A stretch of 24,000 nt of DNA from Vicinamibacterales bacterium (GCA_046496425.1 JAWOGY010000234.1:1-24000); one strand, 5' to 3'; shown: positions 1,952 through 18,598, counted from the first letter of the stretch. Numbers and translations: made by a program. Notes: generated by a model not told the origin, from the sequence alone.

Positions 1952-2968
1952 GTGCCTGATTCCACCTTATCCCTCGTCGACGCCGTTGAGCCGTCTTCCG
2001 CGCTGGTCGGCGCCCGCGTGACGATCCGCGGCCGCGGCCTCGCGCCTGCGGACGGCGGCCTGCCGGAGGCCCGCGTCGGAGGCGTGCGCGCGCAGGTGGT
2101 GATGGCGTCGCCGTCGCGCATCGGGATCATCGTGCCCGCGAAGGCGGCGCGGGGCCGTCAGGCGGCGGCGGTGGCAGGCGCCGGCGGCCACGCGGATCTG
2201 GACGTGGGGACCCCGATGGTGAGCGGGGTGCACCAGGTGGACAACCCCGCGTTCGGCCACGACGGCATGCTCTACGCGACGTTCAGCGGCACGCGTGGGC
2301 AGCGGGTGCCGGTGTCGGTCTTCCGCGTCCCGGGCGAGGGCGAAAAGGCGCCCTTCCTGACCGAGATCACCAACGCCACCTCGATGGCCTGCGACCGCGA
2401 CGGCGTGCTGCACGTCACGAGCCGCTACGACGGCACGGTACGGAAGATCCATGCCGACGGAACCGCCGACATCGTCGCCCACGACCTCGGCGTGGCCTGC
2501 GGCATCGCGTTCGGGTCGGACGGGACAATGTTCGTCGGCGACCGCAGCGGCACGGTGTTCCGCGTCGGATCGTCGGCCCACGTCGTGCCGTTCGTGTCGC
2601 TTCCTCCGAGCCTGGCGGCATTCCACCTGGCGATGGGCCCGGACGATGCGCTGTATGTGACGGGCCCGACCATGGCCACTTACGATCACGTGTACCGCGT
2701 GGATCGTCAGGGCGCGGTCTCGGTGGTGTCGTCCGAGTTCGGCCGGCCCCAGGGGCTGGCGGTCGACGAGGACGGGACGCTGTACGTGGTGGAGGCGCTC
2801 GCGGGAGGCGCGGGGCTCTACCGCGTGCGGGCCGGGGCCCCGCGCGAGCTCGTCGTCGCCGCCGCCACGCTCGTCGGCGTGGCCATCGACCCGCACGGCG
2901 GGCTCGTCGTGGCCTCGAACGACACGATCTACCGTCTCGACATGGGGCTGAAGCCCTGGAGAGCCTGA
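1952..2968 (+). CDS. IPT/TIG-like N-terminal domain plus NHL/SMP-30-like beta-propeller repeat protein
   Basis: 338-aa ORF with a GTG start. The N-terminus (VGARVTIRGRGL...VRAQVVMASPSRIGIIVP) looks like an IPT/TIG Ig fold. Blade-like repeats follow (DGMLYAT, DGVLHVTS, DGTMFVGD, DDALYVTG, DGTLYVVE, GGLVVAS). No obvious signal peptide. Confidence 0.6.
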   Translation: MPDSTLSLVDAVEPSSALVGARVTIRGRGLAPADGGLPEARVGGVRAQVVMASPSRIGIIVPAKAARGRQAAAVAGAGGHADLDVGTPMVSGVHQVDNPAFGHDGMLYATFSGTRGQRVPVSVFRVPGEGEKAPFLTEITNATSMACDRDGVLHVTSRYDGTVRKIHADGTADIVAHDLGVACGIAFGSDGTMFVGDRSGTVFRVGSSAHVVPFVSLPPSLAAFHLAMGPDDALYVTGPTMATYDHVYRVDRQGAVSVVSSEFGRPQGLAVDEDGTLYVVEALAGGAGLYRVRAGAPRELVVAAATLVGVAIDPHGGLVVASNDTIYRLDMGLKPWRA

Positions 2969-4509
2969 TGAAGCATCTGTTCGCCGTCAAGTCGCTCGAC
3001 CAGATCAAGAGAGACAGCGAGGCGCCGGGCCAGCAGCTGAAGCGGACGCTCGGCCCTGTGCAGCTGACGGCGCTCGGCATCGGGGCCATCATGGGCGCCG
3101 GCATCTTCTCGACGATCGGGTCGGCGGCGGCCGGCGGCGGATCGCACGTGGGCGCCGGGCCCGCCATCATCGCGTCGTTCATCCTGACGGCCGTCGCGTG
3201 CGGGTTCGCGGCGCTGTGCTACGCGGAATTCGCCGCGATGGTCCCGATCTCCGGCTCGGCCTACACCTACGCCTACGCGACGCTGGGAGAAGCGGTGGCC
3301 TGGATCATCGGCTGGGACCTCATCCTCGAGTACGCCGTCGGCAACGTCGCCGTCGCGATTTCCTGGTCGGGCTACTTCCGCGAGCTGCTCGCCGGCTTCG
3401 GCATCTTCATCCCCGGCTGGCTGAGCATCGACTACCCGACGGCGGCGGACGCGGCCGAGCACCTGGCCCAGCTCCAGGCGCAGGGCGGCGATGTGGCCTC
3501 GCTCAGCATCGCCGCCACGCGGGCGGCGGAGGCGTTCGCCTCGGCCCCGATTGTCTTCGGCGTCCCGATCATCCTGAACCTGCCGGCGTTCATGATCGTG
3601 ATGGGCATCACGTGGGTGCTCGTCGTGGGCATCCGCGAGAGCGCGTGGCTGACCGGGGCGCTGGCGGTGCTGAATGTCGCCATCCTGATCTTCTTCTGCG
3701 TGGTCGGCGCCTTCTACGTCGAGCCGTCGAACTGGGTGCCGTTCGCGCCCAACGGCTTCCGCGGCATCTCGAGCGCGGCGGCCATCATCTTCTTCGCCTA
3801 CATCGGCTTCGACGCGGTGTCGACGGCGGCCGAGGAAACGAAGAACCCCCAGCGCGACATGCCCATCGCCATGATCGCCAGCCTGGTCATCAGCACGATC
3901 ATCTACGTCGCCGTCGCCATCGTGCTCACCGGCATGCTGCCGTGGACGCAGCTTGGCACCGCCGAGCCGCTGGCCACGGCGTTTTCGGCCAACAACATCA
4001 CCTGGGCGTCCGGCATCATCGCCTTCGGCGCCGTTTGCGCCACCAGCGGCGTCCTGCTGGTGTTCCAGCTCGGCCAGCCGCGCATCTTCTTCTCGATGGC
4101 GCGCGACGGCCTGCTGCCGAAATGGGCGGCCAGGGTGCACCCCAAGTACCGCACGCCGCACGTCACCACCATCCTCACGGGCGTCATCGTGGCGGTGTGC
4201 GCCACGTTCCTGAACATCAACGAGGTGGTCGAGCTCACCAACATCGGCACGCTCTTCGCCTTCGTGCTGGTGTCGGTCGGAATCCTGATGCTGCGCAAGT
4301 CCGACCCGGACCGGCCGCGCCCGTTCCGCACGCCGCTGGTGCCCTGGGTGCCGCTCATCGCGATCGCCATGTGCTCGTACCTGATGCTTCAGCTGCCCCT
4401 GCTCACCTGGATCCGCTTCGTCCTGTGGCTGGGAGTCGGGCTGGTGATGTACGTCCTGTACGGCATGCGCCACAGCATCCTGCAGAAGCGGCTGGCCGGG
4501 AGGCTCTGA
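2968..4509 (+). CDS. APC-superfamily amino acid permease
   Basis: 513 aa and polytopic. The N-terminus LKRTLGPVQLTALGIGAIMGAGIFSTIG and the segment FFAYIGFDAVSTAAEETKNPQRDMP are typical of amino-acid/cationic amino-acid permeases. The ATG shares one nt with the upstream TGA (TGATG at 2966-2970). Confidence 0.85.
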   Translation: MKHLFAVKSLDQIKRDSEAPGQQLKRTLGPVQLTALGIGAIMGAGIFSTIGSAAAGGGSHVGAGPAIIASFILTAVACGFAALCYAEFAAMVPISGSAYTYAYATLGEAVAWIIGWDLILEYAVGNVAVAISWSGYFRELLAGFGIFIPGWLSIDYPTAADAAEHLAQLQAQGGDVASLSIAATRAAEAFASAPIVFGVPIILNLPAFMIVMGITWVLVVGIRESAWLTGALAVLNVAILIFFCVVGAFYVEPSNWVPFAPNGFRGISSAAAIIFFAYIGFDAVSTAAEETKNPQRDMPIAMIASLVISTIIYVAVAIVLTGMLPWTQLGTAEPLATAFSANNITWASGIIAFGAVCATSGVLLVFQLGQPRIFFSMARDGLLPKWAARVHPKYRTPHVTTILTGVIVAVCATFLNINEVVELTNIGTLFAFVLVSVGILMLRKSDPDRPRPFRTPLVPWVPLIAIAMCSYLMLQLPLLTWIRFVLWLGVGLVMYVLYGMRHSILQKRLAGRL

Positions 4510-4537: not shown

Positions 4538-4653
4538 GGCCTCGCCGAAGCCCGCCCCGCGAAGCCGAGCGGGCGAAGGCGGGCGGCTTGACAATCAATG
4601 GGCGGAGGGGCATCGTTGAACGTGGGCGCGCCGGCCGCGCCGGGAGCACCAGC

Positions 4654-5181
4654 ATGCGCAGCAATCGCGGATTCACCCTCATCGAGCTCCTGATTGTCGT
4701 CGCCATCATCGGCGTCATCGCCGCCGTGGCCGTCCCCGGCCTGCAGCGCGCGCGCCAGTCGGGCAACGAGACGGCGGCCATCGGGTCGCTGCGCGCCGTC
4801 ACGGGCGCGCAGTCGCTCTACGCCGCCGCGTGCGGCAACGGGTTCTTCTCGCCGTCGCTGTCGAACCTGGGCACGCCGCCGGCCGGGGGCCAGGCCTTCA
4901 TCAGCCCCGACCTCAGCACGGGCAACACGGTCTTCAAGAGCGGCTACCAGGTCACGGTGAGCAGTTCGAGCGGCGTGGCGCCGGACGCGCCGCCGACCTG
5001 CAACGGGCTCGCCGCCGGCGCCGCGATGCAGGGCTTTTTCGCCACGGCCACGCCCTCGGCGGGCGGCGGGACCAAGGCCTTCGGCACGAACACGAACCAC
5101 ACGATCTACTGGGCGACGCAGATGACGGCGCTGGCCATGACCGACGACACGGCCCCGGCCGGCACGTTCTCGATTCAGTAG
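4654..5181 (+). CDS. Prepilin-type N-terminal cleavage/methylation domain protein (type IV pilin or T2SS pseudopilin-like)
   Basis: MRSNRGFTLIELLIVVAIIGVIAAVAVP is the class III signal (G/FTLIE) with a hydrophobic helix. GGGAG lies 7 nt upstream of the ATG at 4654. The track ORF start at 4588 is a TTG inside a TTGACA hexamer. Confidence 0.8.
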   Translation: MRSNRGFTLIELLIVVAIIGVIAAVAVPGLQRARQSGNETAAIGSLRAVTGAQSLYAAACGNGFFSPSLSNLGTPPAGGQAFISPDLSTGNTVFKSGYQVTVSSSSGVAPDAPPTCNGLAAGAAMQGFFATATPSAGGGTKAFGTNTNHTIYWATQMTALAMTDDTAPAGTFSIQ

Positions 5182-5200: not shown

Positions 5201-7249
5201 TCAGCGCGCCACCTGGATGCGCACGTAGTCGGTCGCGCCCCCGAGTTCGCGCGCGTCGTTTCCCATGCCCACCGCCGCCGGAACGGCGGCCCCCGTCCAG
5301 ACCAGCTGCACGCGGTTCACGCCCGCCCTCCATGCCGCGGCGTCCGTGGGGAAGTCCACGCGCTGCCAGTCGGCGCCCAGAGGAAAGGGACCGAAACTGC
5401 GGCCGTTGATGCGCACGGCGAGGTTGAGCGACGCCCCGGGATACGAGAACGGCTTCAGCCGGAGCTGGACGATGAGCGGCGCCGGGTGGTCCAGCGGCAG
5501 CAGCACCTCGGCGGTGCCCCGCGACAAGCGGGCCGTCGTGCCGTCTGGCTGCGTGTCGGCCTGGTACCAGCCGTCGCCCAGGTACGCCTCGTCGCGCCAG
5601 CCGATGTCCACCCGGCCGTATGGCCTCTCGGGGTCGCCGAGCATGGGGAACGCGAAGAAGTCGTAGCGGAATGGCGCGACGCCTTCACGGGCCGCGTAGG
5701 CCAGGTTGGCCGGGTAGGAAAACGGGTGCCCGAACCAGCGCGAGAGCGTCCGGGCCTGGTCCACGGCGAGGTCGGCGAACGACTGAGGCACGCTCCCGCC
5801 GAACCGCCCCGCCACGCCGGCCGCGATGGCCGTGATGTTCCAGAGAACGAACAGGCCGAGCAGGGCCGTGACGGCCGCCAGCGGCCGCCGCGCGATCCAC
5901 CGCTTCAGGCCGTCGACGGCCGATGCGAGCCCAACGGCGAGCAGCGGCACCGTGCCGTCGAACCGGCGCGCGCCGAAGGCCGCGCCGCCCCACCAGTCCT
6001 CGACCGAGGCGTTGACGTAGACGGCCAGGGCGAACACCGCGAGGGCGAGCCGGCCGAACGACCGGTCCCGGACGGCGAAGACGACAAGCCCCAGCGCCGC
6101 CAGGTAGGTGACGGGCGAGGTGGAGAACAGCCCGTTTCGCGACGACCAGAGCATGCGCACCGGGTCGGGGCTGAGCCACAGCATCTTCGGCGAGAGGGGC
6201 GACACCGCGATCGGCGAGCCGTAGATGGCGTTCCATGCGACAAGCTGCGGCAGGAAGGCGACAAGCACGCAGGCGCCGAACAGCGCGCCGTGCAGCAGCG
6301 CAGTTCGCCGCTCTCGCGCGCCCGGGCCGGCGGCGAGCGCCGCGGCGATCTCCCAGGCCGGGAAGGCCATGAAGACGAGGTTCTGCCAGCGGATGGCCAG
6401 CATGAGGCCGCCGAGCAGCCCCAGCGCCGCCCATTGCCAGGCCGCGCGGCGGCCCCGGGTGACGGCCCACGCGTAGATGAACGCGGCCACGGCGCACATC
6501 GACGTCGCGTGCGACATGGTCGGCTCCTTCACGACGTACCAGAGCATGAACGAACCGAGCGCGAGGGCCGCGGTCGAGAGGATGGCGAGGCCGCCCGCGA
6601 AGTGCCGCGCCGCGAGCCGGTAACAGAACCAGAAACCCAGGAGGCCGTAGAACAGGCCGGCGATGCAGATGGCCTGCCGGTATGGATACGACGACCCGTC
6701 GGTGGCCGCCTGCACGCCGCGGGCCGACAGGTAGGCGGCTCCGGCGTGGCCGATGGCGTAGAACGGCATCCAGGCGATGGCCGGGCCCACCGACCAGGCC
6801 GTCTGCGCATAGCCCGTCGCGGTCGGCGTCATGATCGCCTCGCCGCCGATGCCAATGAGGCCGTAGTCGTTGGCGAGGCTGACGTCGTGGTCGTTGACGA
6901 TCGACCGGAGGAAGGCGAAGTAGAAGAACCCGTCGCTCTGAAGCCGCGCCCCAAGGCGCTGCTGGGCCGCGAGGCCCGCCACGAAGAGGGCGCAGAGCGC
7001 GAGCGCGACGGCGCGGTTCATGGTGAGGTCCCGGCGCAGGCGCAGCCAGGCGGCGGCGACGAGGGCCGCCGCCGCGGCGAGCGCCACGAGAACAGCGGCC
7101 GGAGGCGGCGCCGCGCCGGTGACGTTCTGTAGCAGCGACTGGCGGATGACCTGCCGGCCGCCCATCTCGGCGGCGAAGGCGAGGATCGCAAGGGCCGCCA
7201 GCCAGACAGGCCAGGTGGCAGCCAGGCGGCGGGTGCTGGAATCCTTCAC
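5201..7249 (-). CDS. Large polytopic membrane protein, candidate GT-C-fold (ArnT/PMT-like) glycosyltransferase with a C-terminal soluble domain
   Basis: 682 aa with many hydrophobic helices across about 500 aa. It has an early loop with acidic/aromatic residues (QSDGFFYFAFLRSIVNDHDVSLANDY), as in GT-C enzymes, and a non-hydrophobic C-terminal region of about 150 aa. The family assignment rests on architecture only. GTG start. Confidence 0.45.
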   Translation of the reverse strand: MKDSSTRRLAATWPVWLAALAILAFAAEMGGRQVIRQSLLQNVTGAAPPPAAVLVALAAAAALVAAAWLRLRRDLTMNRAVALALCALFVAGLAAQQRLGARLQSDGFFYFAFLRSIVNDHDVSLANDYGLIGIGGEAIMTPTATGYAQTAWSVGPAIAWMPFYAIGHAGAAYLSARGVQAATDGSSYPYRQAICIAGLFYGLLGFWFCYRLAARHFAGGLAILSTAALALGSFMLWYVVKEPTMSHATSMCAVAAFIYAWAVTRGRRAAWQWAALGLLGGLMLAIRWQNLVFMAFPAWEIAAALAAGPGARERRTALLHGALFGACVLVAFLPQLVAWNAIYGSPIAVSPLSPKMLWLSPDPVRMLWSSRNGLFSTSPVTYLAALGLVVFAVRDRSFGRLALAVFALAVYVNASVEDWWGGAAFGARRFDGTVPLLAVGLASAVDGLKRWIARRPLAAVTALLGLFVLWNITAIAAGVAGRFGGSVPQSFADLAVDQARTLSRWFGHPFSYPANLAYAAREGVAPFRYDFFAFPMLGDPERPYGRVDIGWRDEAYLGDGWYQADTQPDGTTARLSRGTAEVLLPLDHPAPLIVQLRLKPFSYPGASLNLAVRINGRSFGPFPLGADWQRVDFPTDAAAWRAGVNRVQLVWTGAAVPAAVGMGNDARELGGATDYVRIQVAR

Positions 7250-7261: not shown

Positions 7262-7372
7262 AAGGTGACACCATCCACGCCCCGAACAAGATGAGAGTTC
7301 CTGGGTAACGGTTCCCGCACCGGAAGTGGGACGCGTCGCCTTTTGTATACTGTGCAGCGGAGGACTGGGGCG

Positions 7373-8179
7373 ATGTCCGTGATGAATCCCGACCAGCAGC
7401 CTCGTTCAGGGGGCATGGGCAGATTCCTGCTGATTGGCGCGGCGGCGCTCGCCGTGCTCGCCCTGGCCTACGCCGGCGTCACGATGCTGATGACGCCGGA
7501 GGCGAAGTCCGAGCCGGCACCGGCTGCCCGGGCCGAGCCTGAACCGGAGCCGCCGGCGGCGAAGCCGTCCGAGCCCGAGATGCCCGCCGACGCACCAGCG
7601 GCCCGAAGGCCCCGGCCGCGCAAGGAATCGCTCCCGGCCCCCGAGCCGGCCGCGCCGCCGCCCGCCGGCCCGACGCTCGTTGTCGAAAGCGACGTCCCCG
7701 GCGCCTCGGTGTTCGTCGACCGCAAGTTCGTGGGCACCACGCCGCTGCGCACGACGGACGTGCCAGGCGGGTCCCACCAGCTGAACGCGTCGGCGACGGG
7801 CGAGGACGGCCTGGCGCAGGCCATCGAGATCGCCGAGACAGGGGAGACGACAATCGCGTTGAGGTTCAGGGAGGTGCGGCTGAACGCCTCGGTGGCCGTC
7901 GTGCACAAGCACGGCATGGGCCGATCCTGCGAAGGCCGGCTCGTGGCCACGCCCGAGGGCATCCGCTACGACACCGCCAACAGGAGCGACGCGTTCGCGT
8001 TCCCGTTCAGCGCCCTCGAGGTGTTCGAGATCGACTACCTGAAGAAGGAACTCAAGGTGAAGCAGAAGGGAGGCAAGACCTGGAACTTCACCGACAAGTC
8101 CGACAACGCGGACAAGCTCTTCGTCTTTCACCGCGACGTGACGAAGGCGCGCGAGAAACTGGCCGCCTTGGGGCGGTAG
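7373..8179 (+). CDS. Membrane-anchored PEGA-domain protein with a Pro/Ala/Glu-rich linker
   Basis: ATG at 7373 with GGAGGA 8 nt upstream. TM helix FLLIGAAALAVLALAYAGVTMLM, a P/A/E-rich linker, then the PEGA-like motif PGASVFVDRKFVGTTPL. The C-terminal ~100 aa is an unassigned globular region. Confidence 0.7.
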   Translation: MSVMNPDQQPRSGGMGRFLLIGAAALAVLALAYAGVTMLMTPEAKSEPAPAARAEPEPEPPAAKPSEPEMPADAPAARRPRPRKESLPAPEPAAPPPAGPTLVVESDVPGASVFVDRKFVGTTPLRTTDVPGGSHQLNASATGEDGLAQAIEIAETGETTIALRFREVRLNASVAVVHKHGMGRSCEGRLVATPEGIRYDTANRSDAFAFPFSALEVFEIDYLKKELKVKQKGGKTWNFTDKSDNADKLFVFHRDVTKAREKLAALGR

Positions 8180-8186
8180 AGTGTTT

Positions 8187-8216
8187 GATGGAGCCCGGGG
8201 TCTTCAGACCCCGGGG
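8187..8216. repeat. Hairpin element copy A (GATGGAGCC + 9-bp stem, TTCA loop)
   Basis: CCCGGGGTC (8194-8202), TTCA (8203-8206), GACCCCGGG (8207-8215), preceded by GATGGAG. It is near-identical to 21796-21824. It lies between convergent genes, and the TCA of the loop is the TGA stop of the minus-strand FAD-subunit gene. Confidence 0.85.
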
Positions 8217-9040
8217 GGGCGGCCCGTGTCAGCCCAGAACTGCGCCAGCAGGCGGGCGGCGACCTCGCGCCGGTAGGCGGCGGTCGAGCGGAGGTCGTCG
8301 ATCGGGCTGATGTCCTGCTGCAGGACCTGCTGCGCCTCGGCGAGCGTTGCGCCCGAGGCGAGCGCATCCTCCGTGCGGCGCGCGCGCACGACGGTGGGCG
8401 CCACGCTGCCCAGGGCGATGCGCGGATGTGCGCCGCGGACGGCCGCCATCACGACCTTCGAGATCGACTGGGCCGCGCGCGTCCCCACCTTCCGGAACCA
8501 CTGCGCACCCTCCACGCGGGGCACTTCGATGGCCGTGATGAGTTCGTCCGCCCGCCGGACGCTCGCGCGGTAGCCGGTGTAGAAGTCCGCGAAGGGCACC
8601 TTGCGCGTCCAGTCGAGGCTGCGAAGCTCGACGAACGCCTCCGCGGCCGCAACGACGGGCAGCGTATCACCCGCCGGCGAGCCATTGGCGATGTTGCCGC
8701 CGAGGGTGCCGCGGTTCTGGATCTGCACCGCGCCGATCTCCCGCGCGGCCGCGGCGAGCATGGGCAGGCGACGGCGCACCTGCGCCGATCGGAGGATCTC
8801 GCTGTACGTGGCCAGGGCACCGATGCGGAGCACGTCGCCGCGCACCTCGATCCCGCGGAGCGCATCGAGGCCCCAGAGGTTCAGAAATCGCCGGTCGGCC
8901 AGCGCGCCGGCGTTGAGGCCGACATAGAGGTCCGTGCAGCCGGCCATCGGCGCGATCGGGCCCTCCTCGCGCAGCATCCGGAGCGCTTCGCGCACGGAAC
9001 GCGGCTGCAGCAGGACGAGCGGCGAGATCGCCGTCCTCAC
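8204..9040 (-). CDS. Xanthine dehydrogenase/aldehyde oxidase family FAD-binding (medium) subunit
   Basis: GTG at 9040 with GGAGG 5 nt upstream. Motifs: PMAGCTDLYV and TLGGNIANGSPAGD, typical of CoxM/XdhA FAD domains. GTGA overlap with the stop of the small-subunit gene. The longer 527-aa track ORF is this frame running open through the upstream gene. Confidence 0.85.
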   Translation of the reverse strand: MRTAISPLVLLQPRSVREALRMLREEGPIAPMAGCTDLYVGLNAGALADRRFLNLWGLDALRGIEVRGDVLRIGALATYSEILRSAQVRRRLPMLAAAAREIGAVQIQNRGTLGGNIANGSPAGDTLPVVAAAEAFVELRSLDWTRKVPFADFYTGYRASVRRADELITAIEVPRVEGAQWFRKVGTRAAQSISKVVMAAVRGAHPRIALGSVAPTVVRARRTEDALASGATLAEAQQVLQQDISPIDDLRSTAAYRREVAARLLAQFWADTGRPPGV

Positions 9041-9591
9041 GCTCGCCTCCCGCCTTCGCCGAACGGCCTGCCGGCCGGCTTCGGCGCGGCAAGCCCCCTC
9101 CTGTTTTCTGTCTTCTGTCCTCTGTCTCCTGTCTTCTTGCTTCTTGCTTCTTGCTTCTTGATGGCCCTGTAAATCCCCGCGTACCCCGTGCACCGGCAGA
9201 TGTTGCCGGCGAGCCCCGTGCGCACCTCGTCGAGCGTGGGGCGGGGCCCGAGCGCCGCGGCCGCCATGATCATCCCCGGCGTGCAGATGCCGCATTGCGC
9301 CCCGCCCGATTCGGCGAAGGCGCGCTGCAGCGGATGGCGGCCCTTCAGCCCTTCGATCGTCACCACCCGTGCGCCCGCCGCCTGGGCGACCGGCACGAGG
9401 CACGAGTTGACGGCCCGTCCGTCCAGAAGCACCGTGCACGCGCCGCATTCGCCTTCGCCGCAGCCCTCCTTTGTGCCCGTCAGGCCGCAGTCCTCGCGCA
9501 GGACGTCGAGCAGCCGCTTCAGCGGGTGCACCCGCAGCGACGTGCGTTTCCCGTTCAGCGTGAACACGATGGGCCGATGGGCGGCGGTCAT
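9037..9591 (-). CDS. Xanthine dehydrogenase family [2Fe-2S]-binding small subunit with a low-complexity C-terminal tail
   Basis: Both cluster motifs are present: CGEGECGACTV and CGICTPG...CRCTGY. After ...GYAGIYRAI there is a tail of about 39 aa, rich in K/Q/E/R/G, partly encoded by the heptanucleotide array. Confidence 0.9.
   Translation of the reverse strand: MTAAHRPIVFTLNGKRTSLRVHPLKRLLDVLREDCGLTGTKEGCGEGECGACTVLLDGRAVNSCLVPVAQAAGARVVTIEGLKGRHPLQRAFAESGGAQCGICTPGMIMAAAALGPRPTLDEVRTGLAGNICRCTGYAGIYRAIKKQEARSKKTGDRGQKTENRRGLAAPKPAGRPFGEGGRRA
9101..9163. repeat. Period-7 tandem repeat, about 9 units (CTGTYYY x5, CTTGCTT x3 perfect, CTTGATG)
   Basis: Read directly: ctgtttt ctgtctt ctgtcct ctgtctc ctgtctt cttgctt cttgctt cttgctt cttgatg. 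It lies in the 3' end of the small-subunit gene and is purine-rich on the coding strand. Confidence 0.9.
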
Positions 9592-11741
9592 CGGTGGGCG
9601 CCTTTCCCTCTCGCCTGTCGCCTCTCGCCTCTCGCCTCTGCCCTTCCGGCCGCCATGACCCGCTCCGGCGTGGCCGGCACCTCTCGCATGTCGATGCCCA
9701 GGCTCCGGATGGCATTGACAACCGCCGGCGCCACGCCGTCAAACGGCATTTCGCCCACGCCCTTGGCCCCGTACGGCCCGCGCGCATAGGGCTTCTCGAC
9801 CAGCACCACGTCGATCGGCGGCGTGTCGAGTGTCGTCGGCACGATGTAGTTGGTGAATTGCGCGTTGGCCATGGCGCCGCCGCGCATCACCACCTCCTCG
9901 GTGAGCGCATAGCCGAGCCCCTGCGCGGTGCCGCCCTCGATCTGGCCGCGCACGCCGAGCGGGAAGATGGCCCTGCCGACCTCGTGCGCCGTGGTCACTC
10001 TGACGGGCCGGATCTCCTCCGTCACGGGATCGCGTTCGACCTCCACGACGTCGCACGCCCACCCGTATGTGCCATAGGCGGACCCGCGGTACGTCTCGTC
10101 GTCCCACTCCAGACCCTGGGGAGATTCGTACTCCTTCGTCACGACCAGCGGGCCGTGCCTGCGCAGATACGCGGCGGGCGTCAACCTGCCCAGTGTCGCT
10201 CGCATGTCGGCCGCGCACCGCTTCAGCAGCCCGCCCACCACCATCGTCGTCCGGGACGCGACGGTGGGCCCGCTGTCGGGGACGTGCGAGGTGTCGGCGA
10301 CGGCCACCTCGACCGCGTCGTAGGGGAGGCCGAGGGCATCGGCGACGATCTGGGCGTGCACCGTGCGCTGGCCCTGGCCGATTTCGGTGCTGGCCGCGAG
10401 GATCCGCACGCCCGCCGGCGTCAGTTCCAGCGAGGCCTTCGATCGCAGCATCACTTCGCCGCTGCCGGTGAACCCGGCGCCGTGAAAGAACAAGGACAGG
10501 CCGATGCCGCGGTTCGTGCCGCGGTACTCGCGCCGCTTGCGCCGGTACCCGCTGCGCGCGACGGCGGCGCGCAGCACGTCGATCGCGGCCGCATCCGCGC
10601 CGAGCACCTGGCCCGTGGCGGTCGCATCGCCCGGCCGCAGGGCGTTCAGTTCGCGGAAACGCACGGGGTCGATGCCAATCGCCTCCGCGACGCGATCCAT
10701 CTGCACCTCGGCGGCAAACAGCGTCTGCGGCGCGCCGAACCCCCGGAAGGCCCCGTTCGGCGGCGTGTTCGTCATGACGACACGGCCGTTCACGCGCACG
10801 TGGCCGCAGCGGTAGGGCCCGGTGGCGTGCAGGCAGCCGCGCGAGAGGACGACCGGGCTGAGCGTGCTGTAGGCGCCACCGTCCATCAGTACGTCGATGT
10901 CCATCGCCGTCAGGCGGCCGTCGCGCGTCACGCCGGTGCGATGGCGGACAACGGACGGGTGGCGCTTGGTCGTGGCGAGCATGTCCTCGGCGCGGTCGTA
11001 GACCAGCTTCACCGGCCGGCCCGACTTCAGCGCCAGCAGGCACGCGTGACCGGCGATGATGGATGGGTATTCCTCCTTGCCGCCGAACCCGCCGCCGGTT
11101 TCCGCCTGGACGACGCGGACCCTGTCCTCCGGCATGCCCAGCAGGACCGCGAGCGCCCGATGCACGTAGTAGGGGCACTGCATGGAGCCCACCACGGTGA
11201 TGCCCCCGTCTCCGGGGATGGCCAGCATGCCGTTGGGCTCGATGTAGAGGTGCTCCTGGTGCCACGTCCGGTACTCGCCCTCGACCACGACCTCCGCGCG
11301 TCGGAAACCCTCGTCGAGATCGCCCGTGCCGAGGGCGATCCGCTTGAACACCAGCGGGGAGCGCGCCGGGTCGAGGACGGGTTCACGCGGGCGGTACTCG
11401 ATGTCGACGACGGCGGCGAGCAGCCGCTCCCTGTCCTCGTGGGCGAGGAGCAGGATCGGCTCCGCGACATGGCGGACCTCGCCCTCTGCCAGACACGGCT
11501 GGTCGTCGGTGATGAGCGACACGATGTTGCGGCCCGGGACGTCGCGGGCCTCGACGATGGTGAATCCGGAGGTGTCGAAGCCAAGGCGAAGGCGAATGAT
11601 GTCGCCGCAGGGGATAGCGGACCGGATCGTCCGCGCGTAGAGCAGTCCAGGCAGCGTCAGGTCGTCGACGTAACGCGCTGTACCTGAGGCCTTTGCCGCC
11701 CCGTCCTTGCGAACGACGTTGCGCCCGACGGCTCGGCTCAT
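9588..11741 (-). CDS. Xanthine dehydrogenase/aldehyde oxidase family molybdopterin-binding large subunit
   Basis: Start [14 protein letters not shown] (ATG at 11741). Motifs: GGGFGGKE and [10 protein letters not shown] (XDH/AOX type, not the CODH active-site loop), and [16 protein letters not shown] overlap with the small-subunit start. The substrate cannot be assigned. Confidence 0.9.
9610..9644. repeat. Period-7 tandem repeat, 5 units (CTCGCCT-type)
   Basis: ctcgcct gtcgcct ctcgcct ctcgcct ctgccct. It encodes the large-subunit tail ...[14 protein letters not shown] and lies immediately upstream of the small-subunit ATG. On the coding strand it reads as repeated AGGCGAG (SD-like GAGG). Confidence 0.9.
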
Positions 11742-11790
11742 CCAGACCCCCGGAGCGGATTGGGCCCGGCCAGCGTGCCGGGGTGCGGCG

Positions 11791-11796
11791 ATTATA
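11791..11796 (-). promoter_or_regulatory. Consensus -10 TATAAT (minus strand) upstream of the XDH-family operon
   Basis: Plus-strand ATTATA at 11791-11796. A weak -35-like ATGAAA lies about 18 nt upstream on the minus strand. The ATG is at 11741. Confidence 0.35.
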
Positions 11797-11806
11797 GCGC
11801 CCCGCA

Positions 11807-11815
11807 TGGTAGAAT
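11807..11815 (+). promoter_or_regulatory. Extended -10-like element TGgTAGAAT upstream of uvrA
   Basis: TGGTAGAAT at 11807-11815. It lies back-to-back with the minus-strand TATAAT 11 nt away, in a divergent intergenic region of about 107 bp. Confidence 0.4.
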
Positions 11816-15805: not shown

Positions 15806-15834
15806 TCGACTCCTCCCTCCTCCTCCTGCAGAGA

Positions 15835-15867
15835 CCGGGGCCGCGGCCTGAGCAACCGCGGCCCCGG
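15835..15867. terminator. 12-bp perfect GC-rich stem-loop between convergent lpxC and the radical SAM gene (candidate bidirectional terminator)
   Basis: CCGGGGCCGCGG (15835-15846), a 9-nt loop, then CCGCGGCCCCGG (15856-15867). No U-tract. Confidence 0.55.
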
Positions 15868-15903
15868 GCTTGTACAGGCCGCGTGAAGGCCTTCGTGCGC
15901 GGC

Positions 15904-17265
15904 CTACACGACCCGGAGCGGCTTCAGCGTCGTCTGCGATCCGCAGGCCTCGAACCAGTCGATGCCCTCGCTGACGAGGTCGAACTTGAGCTGGTAGCGG
16001 CCGGGGTGGGCCGGCATGGGAATCTCGATCTCGACAGCGGCCTGCTCGCCGCCTCCGATCGTCTGCGGCAGCCATGCGCGGGCGTGGTCGCGGTTGAGGA
16101 CCGCGCCGCTCACATCGCACAACTGGGCGCCGAGGCGCACGAGGCGCCGGCCGTAGCTGGCCTCGCGCGGGAACGGGCGCATGGAGAGATTCCGCACGCG
16201 CGCCCGGACGGAGAGCGTCTTCCCGCGGCGCGCCACGAGCGGCAGCCCCGGCAGAAGCCCGGGCACCTCGATGCGCGCCCGCGGCATCGCGCCCGAAATG
16301 GCGTTGCCGAGGTTGTTCGTGTCCCAGATCTCGTACCTGACCCGTTCGTAATCGGGCGATCCGGGCACGAAGCGCCGCGAGAACGCGTCTTCGGGATGGT
16401 CCGTAATCTCCCAGGTCAGCCGGTCGGCGCCGAGTTCGGCGGCCATTTCCCGGGCGCGCCGCATCTCGTCGTCGCTGTCGTTCCAGGCGAAGAGGATATA
16501 GCGCCAGTTGATGACGGGGACGTCGCGGCCGGCCTTCCGCTTCTCGTCCGCCATCGCGCGCAAGTTGGCGATGGCCAGGTCGAAGCGGCCGCGCTGCCGG
16601 TAGCGCGCGTACGTCTCCGGCGATGCGCCGTCGATGGAGAAGGTCACCTCGTCGATGCCCGAGCGCGCGAGGCGCCGCGCCGACTCCTCCGTGAACGCCA
16701 AGCCGTTGGTGCTCGTGTAGAGGTAAATGTGCGGAAACGTCGCCTTCACGTACTCGCACATCTCGACGGCCCGCTTGTGCAGGAACGCCTCGCCGTAGTT
16801 GAAGAAATCGACGCGCCCGAGCGTGGGCCCCGCTTCGTCGATCACCCGCGTGAAGAGATCGACGTCGAGCATCCCGGCCTGGCGCGTGCGCGTGATGCCG
16901 GTTTCCGGGGCGCAGCAGGCCTCGAGGCACGAGATGTTGCACGCGGCGGTGCACTCGACGTAGAGGCGCGAGGGCTGCGGCGGCACCTCGAGACCGCGCT
17001 GCAAAGGCGCCTCGCCTTTCGCCAGCGGCAGTTTCAGCGGGCAATCGCCGCAGAACGCCGATCCGCCGCGGTTCAGGTCCTCGCGCAAGGCGGCTATCGC
17101 GGGGCCGGTCCAGATGTCGCGGAGGGACGCCGTGCGGGTGTCGCCCAGCACGCGATTCCCGTACGGATCGGCGCAACCGCAGACGATGCGGCCGTCGCAG
17201 AGCATGACGAGGGTGCTCCAGGGCCAGGAGCAGGTGAAGCGCGTCGCCAGGTGATGGAGGGCCAC
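15904..17265 (-). CDS. Atypical radical SAM protein: N-terminal SPASM/twitch-like Cys-rich region, core domain and C-terminal beta-rich domain
   Basis: 453 aa with a GTG start 5 nt after the upstream stop. Six Cys in the first 76 aa (C..PW....CDGRIVCGC...LRDIW...LR....CGDC). Cluster-site region YVECTAACNISCLEACC. FFNYGEAFLH (GEPLL-like), TFSIDG, and the YILFAWNDSDDEM motif. The C-terminal ~130 aa looks like an Ig-like beta domain (YQLKFDLVSEGIDWF). Confidence 0.75.
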   Translation of the reverse strand: MALHHLATRFTCSWPWSTLVMLCDGRIVCGCADPYGNRVLGDTRTASLRDIWTGPAIAALREDLNRGGSAFCGDCPLKLPLAKGEAPLQRGLEVPPQPSRLYVECTAACNISCLEACCAPETGITRTRQAGMLDVDLFTRVIDEAGPTLGRVDFFNYGEAFLHKRAVEMCEYVKATFPHIYLYTSTNGLAFTEESARRLARSGIDEVTFSIDGASPETYARYRQRGRFDLAIANLRAMADEKRKAGRDVPVINWRYILFAWNDSDDEMRRAREMAAELGADRLTWEITDHPEDAFSRRFVPGSPDYERVRYEIWDTNNLGNAISGAMPRARIEVPGLLPGLPLVARRGKTLSVRARVRNLSMRPFPREASYGRRLVRLGAQLCDVSGAVLNRDHARAWLPQTIGGGEQAAVEIEIPMPAHPGRYQLKFDLVSEGIDWFEACGSQTTLKPLRVV

Positions 17266-17270
17266 CGTCC

Positions 17271-17543
17271 CTACGGGTTCTTCTCGGACAGCTTCCTCAT
17301 GTACGCGCCGAGCCGTTCGTTCTCGTAGGTGACGCTGTTCAGGAAGAGGCTCTCCTGCAGGTAGGTGTCGCGCTCGTCTGGCGTCATCTGGCCGACCAGG
17401 TGGGCAATCTCCCGCGCCATGTCCTCGAACGACCGCTCGAGCTCCCTCCGGGCGGTTACCTCGTGGTACAGCGTCTCCATCACGGTGAGCAGGTCGCCGT
17501 CGAGGGGGATCTCCGCGCCGGTGGTGGTCTTGATGGTCCGCAT
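17271..17543 (-). CDS. Hypothetical 90-aa acidic, Cys-free, probably helical protein
   Basis: ATG at 17543, 1 nt after the STAS stop. The stop lies 5 nt before the radical SAM start. Its lower-GC, non-Arg-rich composition argues for real coding. I recognise no family. Confidence 0.6.
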   Translation of the reverse strand: MRTIKTTTGAEIPLDGDLLTVMETLYHEVTARRELERSFEDMAREIAHLVGQMTPDERDTYLQESLFLNSVTYENERLGAYMRKLSEKNP

Positions 17544-17544
17544 G

Positions 17545-17892
17545 CTACCCCTCGAAACTGGCCAGCGCGGTCGCTTCGTCGGCGTACAACTGGATGAAGT
17601 TGTGCGCCCCGGTCATGGTCAACATCGTTTCGACCCGCTTCTGCACGCCCGCGAGCTTCAGCGACCCGCCGGCCGCCGCCGCCTGACGGTACAGGTCCAT
17701 CAGGCACCCGATCGTCGCGCTATCGATATAGACGACGGGAGCGAGGTCAACGATCACTTTTCGCTCGCCTCCGGCGATCAGGCCCACCACGGCGGTCGAG
17801 AAATCGGACAGGAGGGGGTACATCAGGCGGCTCTCGGCGACGCGGACGACACTGATGTCGCGGACGTGGTCGATGGTCAGCTTCATGCTCAT
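17545..17892 (-). CDS. STAS-domain protein (anti-sigma factor antagonist, SpoIIAA/RsbV-like)
   Basis: 115 aa from MSMKLTIDHV. The VIVDL..VVYIDSATIGCL segment carries the conserved DSxxxG serine. ATGA overlap with the sigma-factor stop. The upstream part of the 299-aa track ORF is rejected. Confidence 0.8.
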   Translation of the reverse strand: MSMKLTIDHVRDISVVRVAESRLMYPLLSDFSTAVVGLIAGGERKVIVDLAPVVYIDSATIGCLMDLYRQAAAAGGSLKLAGVQKRVETMLTMTGAHNFIQLYADEATALASFEG

Positions 17893-18524
17893 ACTCCAGA
17901 ACGGCGGCCGGCCTGCCCGGCGTCCGCTCGCGGGCGCAGGCCCTTCTCTCTGAGACGCGTGATCTGCCGCGCAAGTTCGTGCCGGCCCCGGTTGATCCTC
18001 GACTTCACGGTGCCTTCCGGCAGATGCAGCCGGTCGGCGATCTCCTGGTACGACAGCTCCTGGATGTCGCGCATCACCACCGCCGTCCGGAGCGTCTCGG
18101 GCAGCTGCTGCAGCGCCCGGCGCAGCTCCTGGGCGAGGTCGAGGCGCTCGAGGATGACGTGCGCGCTCGTCTCGACCGACTGCGGCGAGAGGTCGTCGGC
18201 ATTCACGTCGCGGTTGATCGTCTCCCGCTCCTTCCGCACGCTGCGGTAGTGGTCGATGCAGAGGTTCCGGCTGACGCTGACGAGCCAGGTCTGGAAGTTC
18301 GCGCGCCGGTCGAAGGTGGCGAGCGACTTGAACACCTTCAGGAAGACGTCCTGCGTCAGGTCCTCCGCCTCGTCGTGCCGCCCGACGAACTTGTACGCGA
18401 CGTTGAACACCCGCCGCCAGTACTGGCGGACGATCTGCTCCCACGCCTGCTCGTCGCCCCGCAGGCAGCGCTCGATCAGGGTGTCGGGTTCCGCGGGCGT
18501 CGGCGTCGGGTCCATCGGGGTCAT
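17889..18524 (-). CDS. ECF-type sigma-70 family RNA polymerase sigma factor
   Basis: Region 2 (WEQIVRQYWRRVFNVAYKFVGRHDEAEDLTQDVFLKVF) and region 4 (LSYQEIADRLHLPEGTVKSRINRGR). I chose the ATG at 18524 because the track start TTG at 18572 is part of a TTGACA -35 box. Confidence 0.85.
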   Translation of the reverse strand: MTPMDPTPTPAEPDTLIERCLRGDEQAWEQIVRQYWRRVFNVAYKFVGRHDEAEDLTQDVFLKVFKSLATFDRRANFQTWLVSVSRNLCIDHYRSVRKERETINRDVNADDLSPQSVETSAHVILERLDLAQELRRALQQLPETLRTAVVMRDIQELSYQEIADRLHLPEGTVKSRINRGRHELARQITRLREKGLRPRADAGQAGRRSGV

Positions 18525-18543
18525 TGAGACGCAGTAACGTCGC

Positions 18544-18572
18544 AGAATACCGTGAGAAGGAGGGGGTGTCAA
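18544..18572 (-). promoter_or_regulatory. Sigma-70-type promoter TTGACA-N17-TATTCT for the sigma/STAS/small/rSAM operon
   Basis: On the minus strand, TTGACA is the complement of 18567-18572, the spacer is 17 nt, and TATTCT is the complement of 18544-18549. The ATG at 18524 lies about 13 nt after the predicted TSS. Confidence 0.6.
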
Positions 18573-18598
18573 ACCGACGGCGCCTCGGATAAGATGCC

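Follow-up and report, generated by a model that had tools for sequence, protein, structure and literature searches.

Single-domain STAS proteins generally act on an anti-sigma factor or on a kinase. Sigma factors of the extracytoplasmic function (ECF) type are classified largely according to their cognate regulators, and a STAS-based mode of control would fill a gap in that classification. In Pseudomonas aeruginosa the STAS protein HsbA (PA3347) binds the small anti-sigma factor FlgM, and HsbR (PA3346) is both kinase and phosphatase (PMC8256260). In Bordetella the partner switch is not known to act on the ECF sigma factor BtrS itself (PMC7498569), and the 2021 reclassification of ECF sigma factors describes no STAS-based mode, with 0 occurrences of the term "STAS" (PMC7826278). 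The system considered here is an operon of four minus-strand genes at positions 15904-18572 of a 24,000-nucleotide stretch of DNA from a Vicinamibacterales bacterium (GCA_046496425.1 JAWOGY010000234.1:1-24000; the whole stretch is hereafter called the window). The operon encodes an ECF sigma factor, a single-domain STAS protein, an undescribed acidic protein of 90 amino acids (p90) and an atypical radical S-adenosylmethionine (radical SAM) enzyme.

ECF loci that contain STAS partner-switching proteins are already known, as in the btr locus, and so are STAS targets that are not kinases, as in the case of FlgM. What is new is that an ECF sigma factor and a STAS protein are combined with a small protein family that is undescribed, has no structural match and is tied to STAS across Acidobacteriota; literature searches returned no description of an ECF sigma–STAS–p90 system. 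As judged from sequence, the strongest candidate for the operon's missing anti-sigma factor is p90, although it is not proven to be one. The reading tentatively preferred here, to which we give slightly less than an even chance, is a partner switch in which p90 would be a kinase-less anti-sigma factor captured by STAS.

Conservation of the STAS–p90 Pair

The proteins of the window were compared with 171 loci by tblastn and open reading frames (ORFs) were then recovered from these loci. Of the 145 loci with enough sequence upstream of p90 to hold another gene, 143 have a STAS gene immediately 5' of it, and the two exceptions are frameshifted assemblies. The two genes usually lie very close together, the distance in about 150 loci being −14 to +6 nt. 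The conserved core of the operon is thus the STAS–p90 pair, which is obligate and tightly coupled across Acidobacteriota. The order sigma–STAS–p90 is also kept in about 150 loci, and the sigma-to-STAS gap is −4 nt in 63 of them. Throughout the clade of the window the trio has lysA–tmk on one side and lpxC–uvrA on the other. The loci with the trio also include a second clade, in which identity of the sigma factor falls to about 57%, and a third clade (P0196) has it as well. The four-gene order of the original prediction is therefore borne out for sigma, STAS and p90, which stay together across Vicinamibacteria-like clades, but not for the fourth gene, which is variable. Mirror-tree analysis of 49 loci, with lpxC and lysA controlled, gave partial correlations with p90 of 0.10 for the sigma factor and −0.04 for STAS, values that are uninformative for a protein of 90 aa.

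Distant lineages of lower GC content keep the STAS–p90 pair as well (L004, L086, L087/88, L089, L090/91 and L092-94). The neighbors of these lone pairs include GT87 and RecD2 genes (L087), DnaB and an HDOD-PAS hybrid kinase (L090), DUF2085 and TPR genes (L093) and transporters (L086, L089). The window-type radical SAM gene is found in 0 of the stand-alone STAS–p90 lineages. In L090 an unrelated canonical radical SAM/SPASM gene is located about 3.5 kb downstream on the other strand. The link between the pair and an ECF sigma factor is a feature at the level of Vicinamibacteria.

The occurrence of the pair alone in deep lineages, beside unrelated genes, speaks for a different explanation, namely that STAS and p90 constitute a two-protein signaling module with a non-sigma output, in which p90 would be an adaptor or effector and the module would merely be housed in an ECF operon. 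The resemblance of p90 to no anti-sigma family points in the same direction, as does the existence elsewhere of STAS proteins with non-sigma partners, for example BtrV and MlaB (PMC7498569). Such a module would, however, leave unexplained why the start/stop overlap with the sigma gene is kept in most sigma-linked loci, and it would leave the sigma factor without visible post-translational control despite a promoter that looks constitutive. We regard this explanation as unlikely, though a serious contender.

Operon Architecture and the ECF Sigma Factor

A sigma-70-type promoter (18544-18572, minus strand) precedes the four genes. Read directly from the sequence, its −35 hexamer TTGACA lies at 18572-18567 and its −10 hexamer TATTCT at 18549-18544, with a 17-nt spacer between them, and the element is situated about 20 nt 5' of the sigma start codon. 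It is the only sigma-70-like site between 15000 and 19500, an interval in which 0.2 such sites are expected from shuffled sequences, and both hexamers are kept in the closest relatives (L007-L015 and L154). The sigma gene (17889-18524, minus strand, 211 aa) starts with the ATG at 18524 and ends with a TGA at 17891-17889, which forms an ATGA overlap (17889-17892) with the ATG of the STAS gene at 17892-17890. The STAS gene (17545-17892, minus strand, 115 aa) ends with a TAG at 17547-17545 and is followed, after the single nucleotide 17544, by the ATG of p90 at 17543. The p90 gene (17271-17543, minus strand) ends in turn with a TAG at 17273-17271, and a 5-nt gap (17266-17270) separates it from the GTG at 17265 with which the radical SAM gene (15904-17265, minus strand, 453 aa) begins. 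Shine-Dalgarno-like motifs (GGAG/GAGG) are located 5' of all three downstream starts. Both the promoter and the junctions had been described in the original prediction, and every coordinate was confirmed when the minus strand was read directly.

The operon is flanked by the housekeeping genes uvrA, lpxC, lysA and tmk. Only about 75 nt (18525-18598) separate the sigma ATG from the start of the divergent lysA gene (GTG, 18599), so that the operon promoter and the 5' region of lysA overlap. At the other end, a GC-rich hairpin (15835-15867) is found between the convergent radical SAM and lpxC genes. This hairpin had previously been placed at the end of the unit and is upheld here with a stem of 14 pairs; its 81-nt context folds at −51.3 kcal/mol (z = −3.9), far better than shuffled sequences, 0 of which fold as well. 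The hairpin has no U-tract and is not called by a terminator scan, and it is likely a bidirectional transcript end or stabilizer.

Profile searches identified the first gene as an ECF sigma factor. The protein matches the Pfam models Sigma70_r2 (73 bits), Sigma70_r4_2 (67.6 bits) and Sigma70_ECF (35.7 bits, cut-off 21.1), as well as the NCBIfam model TIGR02937 (119 bits versus a cut-off of 42.9). It has sigma-2 and sigma-4 domains only, which places it in group IV, the ECF sigma factors. The NCBIfam equivalog models, SigE included, all score far under their thresholds (for example SigW, 131 versus 209; RpoE, 115 versus 236), and the protein is thereby assigned to no named equivalog. The protein is basic (isoelectric point 9.0), p90 by contrast being acidic, and its ratio of nonsynonymous to synonymous substitution rates (dN/dS) against relatives is 0.24-0.33. 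The same profile searches matched the STAS and radical SAM/SPASM proteins to their expected families and left p90 without one. Neither these searches nor a scan of ORFs across the window found a zinc-binding anti-sigma (ZAS), transmembrane anti-sigma or HATPase gene, in agreement with the earlier statement that the operon holds no recognizable anti-sigma factor.

An ECF-type promoter shared upstream of the sigma and radical SAM genes was likewise sought, and only sigma-70-like elements and lineage-specific hairpins were present at these positions. The lack of an ECF-type autoregulatory promoter and of an anti-sigma gene would be expected if the sigma factor had no protein antagonist and were controlled by transcription or turnover, with STAS and p90 as members of its regulon or as passengers, and several ECF groups are indeed without anti-sigma factors (PMC7826278). 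The only promoter found is nevertheless housekeeping-like and conserved, which points to post-translational rather than transcriptional control, and the coupled junctions of the three genes persist across clades that are only 57% identical. A sigma factor without an antagonist is therefore considered quite improbable. The promoter, housekeeping-like and conserved in close relatives, instead fits a constitutive sigma factor under post-translational control, as the preferred partner switch with p90 as anti-sigma factor would have it.

The p90 Protein Family

The third protein of the operon has 0 Cys residues, an isoelectric point of 4.85 and a net charge of −6, just as its first description as an acidic, Cys-free protein of 90 residues had stated. 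As judged by a dN/dS of 0.1-0.36, p90 is a real and constrained coding gene under purifying selection. It is conserved over its whole length, and the window protein shares 100% identity with one annotated as hypothetical in a Vicinamibacterales metagenome-assembled genome (MAG). Homologues of p90 form 6209 clusters at 90% identity, but at 50% identity no more than 277 representatives have E ≤ 0.001, many of the latter being frameshift chimeras. Judging by these counts, the p90 family is therefore abundant yet phylogenetically narrow. A p90 relative was present in 407 genomes when one genome per species was scanned, and the best 80 of these 407 are all Vicinamibacterales or Acidobacteriota MAGs. 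The named divergent members likewise belong to Acidobacteriota. The DnaB protein encoded beside the most divergent well-sampled member has 56-59% identity with its nearest proteins, which are from Vicinamibacteria and Blastocatellia. As far as matches are named, their sequences place the p90 family within Acidobacteriota exclusively.

Several apparent relatives and fusions were rejected. P0168, a protein of 1844 aa, owes its 14 matched stretches to low-complexity TPR sequence and is an artefact, and the STAS–p90 and p90–radical-SAM fusions P0133, P0124, P0170, P0203 and P0237 are frameshift chimeras from error-prone assemblies that provide no evidence of interaction. P0270 is also an apparent fusion produced by frameshift or read-through, and proteins of this kind could mislead interaction searches based on gene fusions.

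The p90 sequence has no Pfam or NCBIfam match at E ≤ 1, a Pfam scan of 14 family members at E ≤ 5 revealed no recurring family, and a profile search of PDB sequences returned nothing significant. A match to some known, unrelated family would have spoken against the original prediction; it was looked for in Pfam, NCBIfam and PDB, and none appeared. The protein does not belong to the class I anti-sigma domain (ASD)/ZAS, RskA, NepR or FlgM families, and since it has no Cys it has no HxxxCxxC motif. By these sequence comparisons p90 belongs to no described anti-sigma family.

An AlphaFold2 (AF2) model of p90, built from a 14-sequence alignment, has a pLDDT (predicted local distance difference test) of 88 and a pTM (predicted template modeling score) of 0.69. 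The modeled fold comprises a β-hairpin (residues 3-13), two helices (18-32 and 39-51) and a long helix (55-88) in which the best-conserved segment of the protein, ESLFLNxVTYEN, is located. A Foldseek search with this model found nothing at E < 1 in PDB or BFVD. The β-hairpin at residues 1-15 (window 17500-17543; TIKTTTGAEIPLDGD) is loosely similar to the swapped-hairpin start of AbrB/VapB antitoxins. This similarity was rejected as a family assignment: its sole trace is a PDB profile match at E = 0.82, the segment is acidic and not basic, and a SpoVT/AbrB Pfam match is found in 0 of 14 family members.

The STAS Protein and the Downstream Gene Slot

The second protein of the operon is a single-domain STAS protein of the anti-sigma-antagonist type. 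It matches the Pfam models STAS (52.8 bits, cut-off 22.6) and STAS_2 (41.8 bits, cut-off 29.2), falls marginally under the cut-off of TIGR00377 (51.5 versus 53.45 bits) and has a weak match to MlaB in the NCBIfam search. The original prediction held that the protein keeps the phosphorylatable serine of a DSxxxG motif, and the residues D57, S58 and G62 (D57-S58-x3-G62) are indeed present and invariant in 152 homologues, including those of the stand-alone lineages. The phospho-acceptor motif around Ser58 is thus conserved, and a phosphorylatable serine is predicted from it.

The STAS gene is also the one that overlaps the sigma stop codon, which would suit a reversal of roles in which STAS would be the inhibitor bound to the ECF sigma factor, with p90 as a STAS antagonist or co-factor. 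A precedent of a sort exists in Actinoplanes, where sigma-SsdA and SipA interact through antagonist and anti-sigma domains (PMC10733313). In the systems reviewed, however, single-domain STAS proteins are described as acting on an anti-sigma factor or kinase and not on a sigma factor directly (PMC8256260), and genomic data do not separate the reversed arrangement from one with p90 as the anti-sigma factor. We consider the reversed arrangement improbable.

The preferred partner switch would depend on a kinase and a phosphatase for Ser58, and genes of both kinds occur in the slot between the operon and lpxC of some related loci. Four of the closest relatives (L001/L009, L006, L008 and L011) have, next after the radical SAM gene and on the strand of the operon, a gene for a PAS–PAS–SpoIIE (PP2C) protein, of which a fifth relative, L015, retains a remnant. 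In L001 (= L009) it occupies 7839-9395, and the remnant in L015 occupies 8004-8183, in each case with radical SAM on one side and lpxC on the other. A PP2C gene is absent from the window, where the corresponding position (15806-15903) is a 98-nt gap. In mycobacteria, STAS anti-anti-sigma homologues can be substrates of Hanks-type kinases, and a kinase of this type is accordingly one candidate for the Ser58 kinase here.

The slot was surveyed in 94 related loci, of which L007 (7897-11408), L154 (7359-9296) and L061 are examples. It holds a Hanks-type kinase–TPR gene in L007 and L061 and a PAS histidine kinase gene in L154. It also holds toxin-antitoxin-like genes (HepT, PIN, UPF0150), restriction-modification genes (XhoI and a methylase), and genes for penicillin amidase, cytochrome c and a second ECF sigma factor (the last in L033 and L139). 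Because the slot is a general insertion hot-spot, the phosphatase and kinase adjacencies are only suggestive. No RsbW-type HATPase was found in 80 cluster representatives from the 94 downstream slots and 50 small ORFs, and the only HATPase domains met belong to histidine kinases (L090, L154).

A Possible Partner Switch

The mechanism that we propose may be outlined as follows. The operon would be transcribed constitutively from its sigma-70-type promoter, with sigma, STAS and p90 translationally coupled and one cargo gene following them. In this lineage p90 would restrain the ECF sigma factor as a small, soluble anti-sigma factor without kinase activity, and would itself be the protein bound by STAS, so that capture of p90 by unphosphorylated STAS would release the sigma factor. 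The state of Ser58 would be set in trans by a kinase encoded elsewhere, either a separate HATPase or a Hanks-type kinase, and by a PP2C phosphatase. The radical SAM enzyme would be an output that is co-expressed with the regulators and stands outside the switch.

Several features of the locus favor this mechanism. There is no other anti-sigma candidate in the operon, whose neighbors are lysA/tmk and lpxC/uvrA; a single promoter, an ATGA overlap and gaps of 1 and 5 nt unite the genes; and p90 is confidently predicted to be folded and helical, and is acidic where the sigma factor is basic. Other observations weigh against it. The p90 protein has no likeness in sequence or fold to any known anti-sigma domain in Pfam, NCBIfam or PDB. 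No kinase for Ser58 was identified at the loci examined, adjacency of a PP2C gene is limited to four or five close relatives and lies within an insertion hot-spot, and the invariant DSxxxG loop could be kept for binding rather than for phosphorylation. Finally, among loci with readable flanks, STAS and p90 stand together with no sigma gene beside them in at least six deep lineages. The pair thus need not have served this ECF sigma factor in its ancestral role, and genomics alone cannot define p90 as the anti-sigma factor of this operon. The non-canonical partner switch put forward in the original prediction agrees with all of the observations and is strengthened in one half, p90 being an obligate STAS partner (143/145) within a trio that is kept, whereas the binding of p90 to the sigma factor is the putative half.

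The Radical SAM Enzyme and the Variable Fourth Position

The fourth gene encodes an enzyme, as had been claimed, with a Radical_SAM domain (PF04055, residues 104-242) that scores 42.7 bits against a cut-off of 29.5. A SPASM match of 34.6 bits lies at residues 12-76 and is therefore N-terminal, not C-terminal. The cluster-binding region has the arrangement C105-x3-C109-x3-C113-x3-C117-C118, invariant in orthologues, and its spacing is CX3CX3C(C) and not the canonical CX3CX2C. In the AF2 model, which is of moderate confidence (pLDDT 66.5), residues 100-290 form a partial β/α barrel. Foldseek matched this core best to BlsE (E = 6e-7) and viperin, and the C-terminal domain best to NBR1/CARDB. No function was assigned to the enzyme, given the pLDDT of 66.5 and the generic nature of its structural neighbors. 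The C-terminus (residues ~330-452; window 15904-16900) is a β-sandwich like the NBR1 FW and CARDB Ig-like domains. Ig domains of this type are often attached to glycoside hydrolases, and their presence on a radical SAM enzyme is unusual.

The distribution of the gene is that of a lineage-specific cargo. It is limited to the sub-clade of the window and is absent in, among others, L016, L027, L054, L056, L063 and L079. The second clade has at this position a gene for an exported Ig-like protein (DUF1573), the start of which overlaps the p90 stop. This DUF1573/HYDIN-like exported Ig-domain gene was noted in 31 related loci of the second clade, for example at 6282-6758 of L101. The fourth gene is thus interchangeable, being radical SAM, DUF1573 or nothing, and the radical SAM enzyme is cargo. 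The suggestion that the operon is a regulatory cassette dedicated to a radical SAM reaction finds no support in this distribution, the gene being present in one sub-clade only and its position elsewhere being empty or taken by DUF1573.

In relatives the p90 and radical SAM genes stand 0 to 274 nt apart, and the spacer often takes the form of a long hairpin specific to the lineage. The spacers of L064, L065, L045, L029, L062, L019, L025 and L023 are 48-274 nt long and mutually non-homologous, and most of these eight form long hairpins in which short units are repeated in tandem, a pattern that suggests the recurrent insertion of structured elements, or attenuators, at this junction.

A related explanation is that p90 is the substrate of the radical SAM enzyme, as a precursor or protein resembling those of ribosomally synthesized and post-translationally modified peptides (RiPPs), or else its helper, with sigma and STAS as regulators. 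A SPASM-type domain does suggest a possible peptide or protein substrate, and the gap between the two genes is only 5 nt in the window. This explanation is nonetheless very improbable. The p90 gene is found without a radical SAM gene in many loci, among them the six listed above, the entire DUF1573 clade and all of the deep lineages, and where both genes are present they are separated by spacers of up to 274 nt that are often long hairpins. A RiPP precursor has a variable leader and a modified core, often rich in Cys, Ser or Thr, but p90 is conserved over its full length, is predicted to be folded and has no Cys. Furthermore, the best structural neighbors of the enzyme core, BlsE and viperin, are small-molecule enzymes. 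The radical SAM enzyme is more readily accommodated as the co-expressed output of a switch in which p90 would be the anti-sigma factor.

Other Genes of the Window

The remainder of the window contains an NlpC/P60 gene on the minus strand (718-1494), an HNH endonuclease gene (1073-1927), a Vgb-lyase/SGL-like β-propeller gene (1952-2968) and an amino-acid permease gene (2968-4509). These are followed by genes for a pilin-like protein with an N-terminal methylation motif (4588-5181) and a PEGA-domain protein (7343-8179), and by a two-gene molybdopterin/FAD dehydrogenase on the minus strand (8204-11807). No family was matched by the large ORFs at 5201-7249 and 5486-7132.

Significance and Comparison with Known Systems

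Vicinamibacteria are abundant in soil and their regulation is almost unstudied experimentally. If p90 is an anti-sigma factor, it would represent a new anti-sigma fold, and STAS switches would be able to function where the anti-sigma factor is not a kinase of the RsbW type, so that partner switches could be searched for more widely. If it is not, STAS and p90 would still constitute a well-defined protein pair with a simple binding prediction. A broader proposal, which we find doubtful but quite conceivable, is that p90 defines a new class of anti-sigma factors (small, acidic, with a β-hairpin and three helices, and unmatched in PDB) that is controlled directly by STAS and has no kinase activity of its own. 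The operon would then harbor the first STAS-based switch acting on an ECF sigma factor, and STAS–p90 would constitute a two-gene switch, spread across Acidobacteriota, to which various outputs could be attached.

Among described radical SAM enzymes, the fourth protein is most similar to the Twitch/SPASM enzymes (BlsE; N_Twi_rSAM NF033640), with which it shares a partial TIM-barrel core and an auxiliary Cys-rich domain. It differs from them in that its NCBIfam scores are all far under the cut-offs, its SPASM-like domain is N-terminal, its cluster spacing is CX3CX3C(C) and it carries the extra C-terminal NBR1/CARDB-like Ig domain.

The regulatory genes have much in common with the RsbV–RsbW–sigma-B and SpoIIAA–SpoIIAB–sigma-F systems of Bacillus. 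In both cases a single-domain STAS antagonist with a DSxxxG motif is encoded together with a sigma factor, and a PP2C/SpoIIE-family phosphatase gene is nearby in some relatives of the window locus. However, no HATPase_c kinase/anti-sigma gene is found at any of about 170 loci or among the 80 cluster representatives from 94 downstream slots, the sigma factor is of group III in Bacillus and of the ECF group (group IV) here, and the position of the anti-sigma factor is taken by a 90-aa helical protein that cannot be a kinase. The Bordetella btr locus (PMC7498569) likewise combines an ECF sigma gene (BtrS) with a STAS partner-switching protein (BtrV), but it also contains BtrU (PP2C), the kinase BtrW and a separate anti-sigma factor, BtrA.

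Two other systems appear to be closer in mechanism. In PhyR–NepR–sigma-EcfG of Alphaproteobacteria (ECF15; PMC7826278, PMC4814048), a small soluble anti-sigma factor is titrated by a phospho-controlled antagonist, as is proposed for p90. The antagonist in that system is a sigma-mimic fused to a receiver domain and not a STAS protein, p90 has no match to NepR, and the lineage concerned here is Acidobacteriota. The closest functional analogue of the proposed mechanism is HsbA–FlgM–sigma-28, in which a STAS protein antagonizes a small anti-sigma factor that is not a kinase. In contrast to FlgM, to which it has no kinship (no Pfam match), p90 is predicted to be folded rather than disordered and is always encoded beside its STAS gene, and the sigma factor here is of the ECF group. 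By analogy, then, we infer that the proposed switch would resemble HsbA–FlgM–sigma-28 or PhyR–NepR–sigma-EcfG more than RsbV–RsbW–sigma-B.

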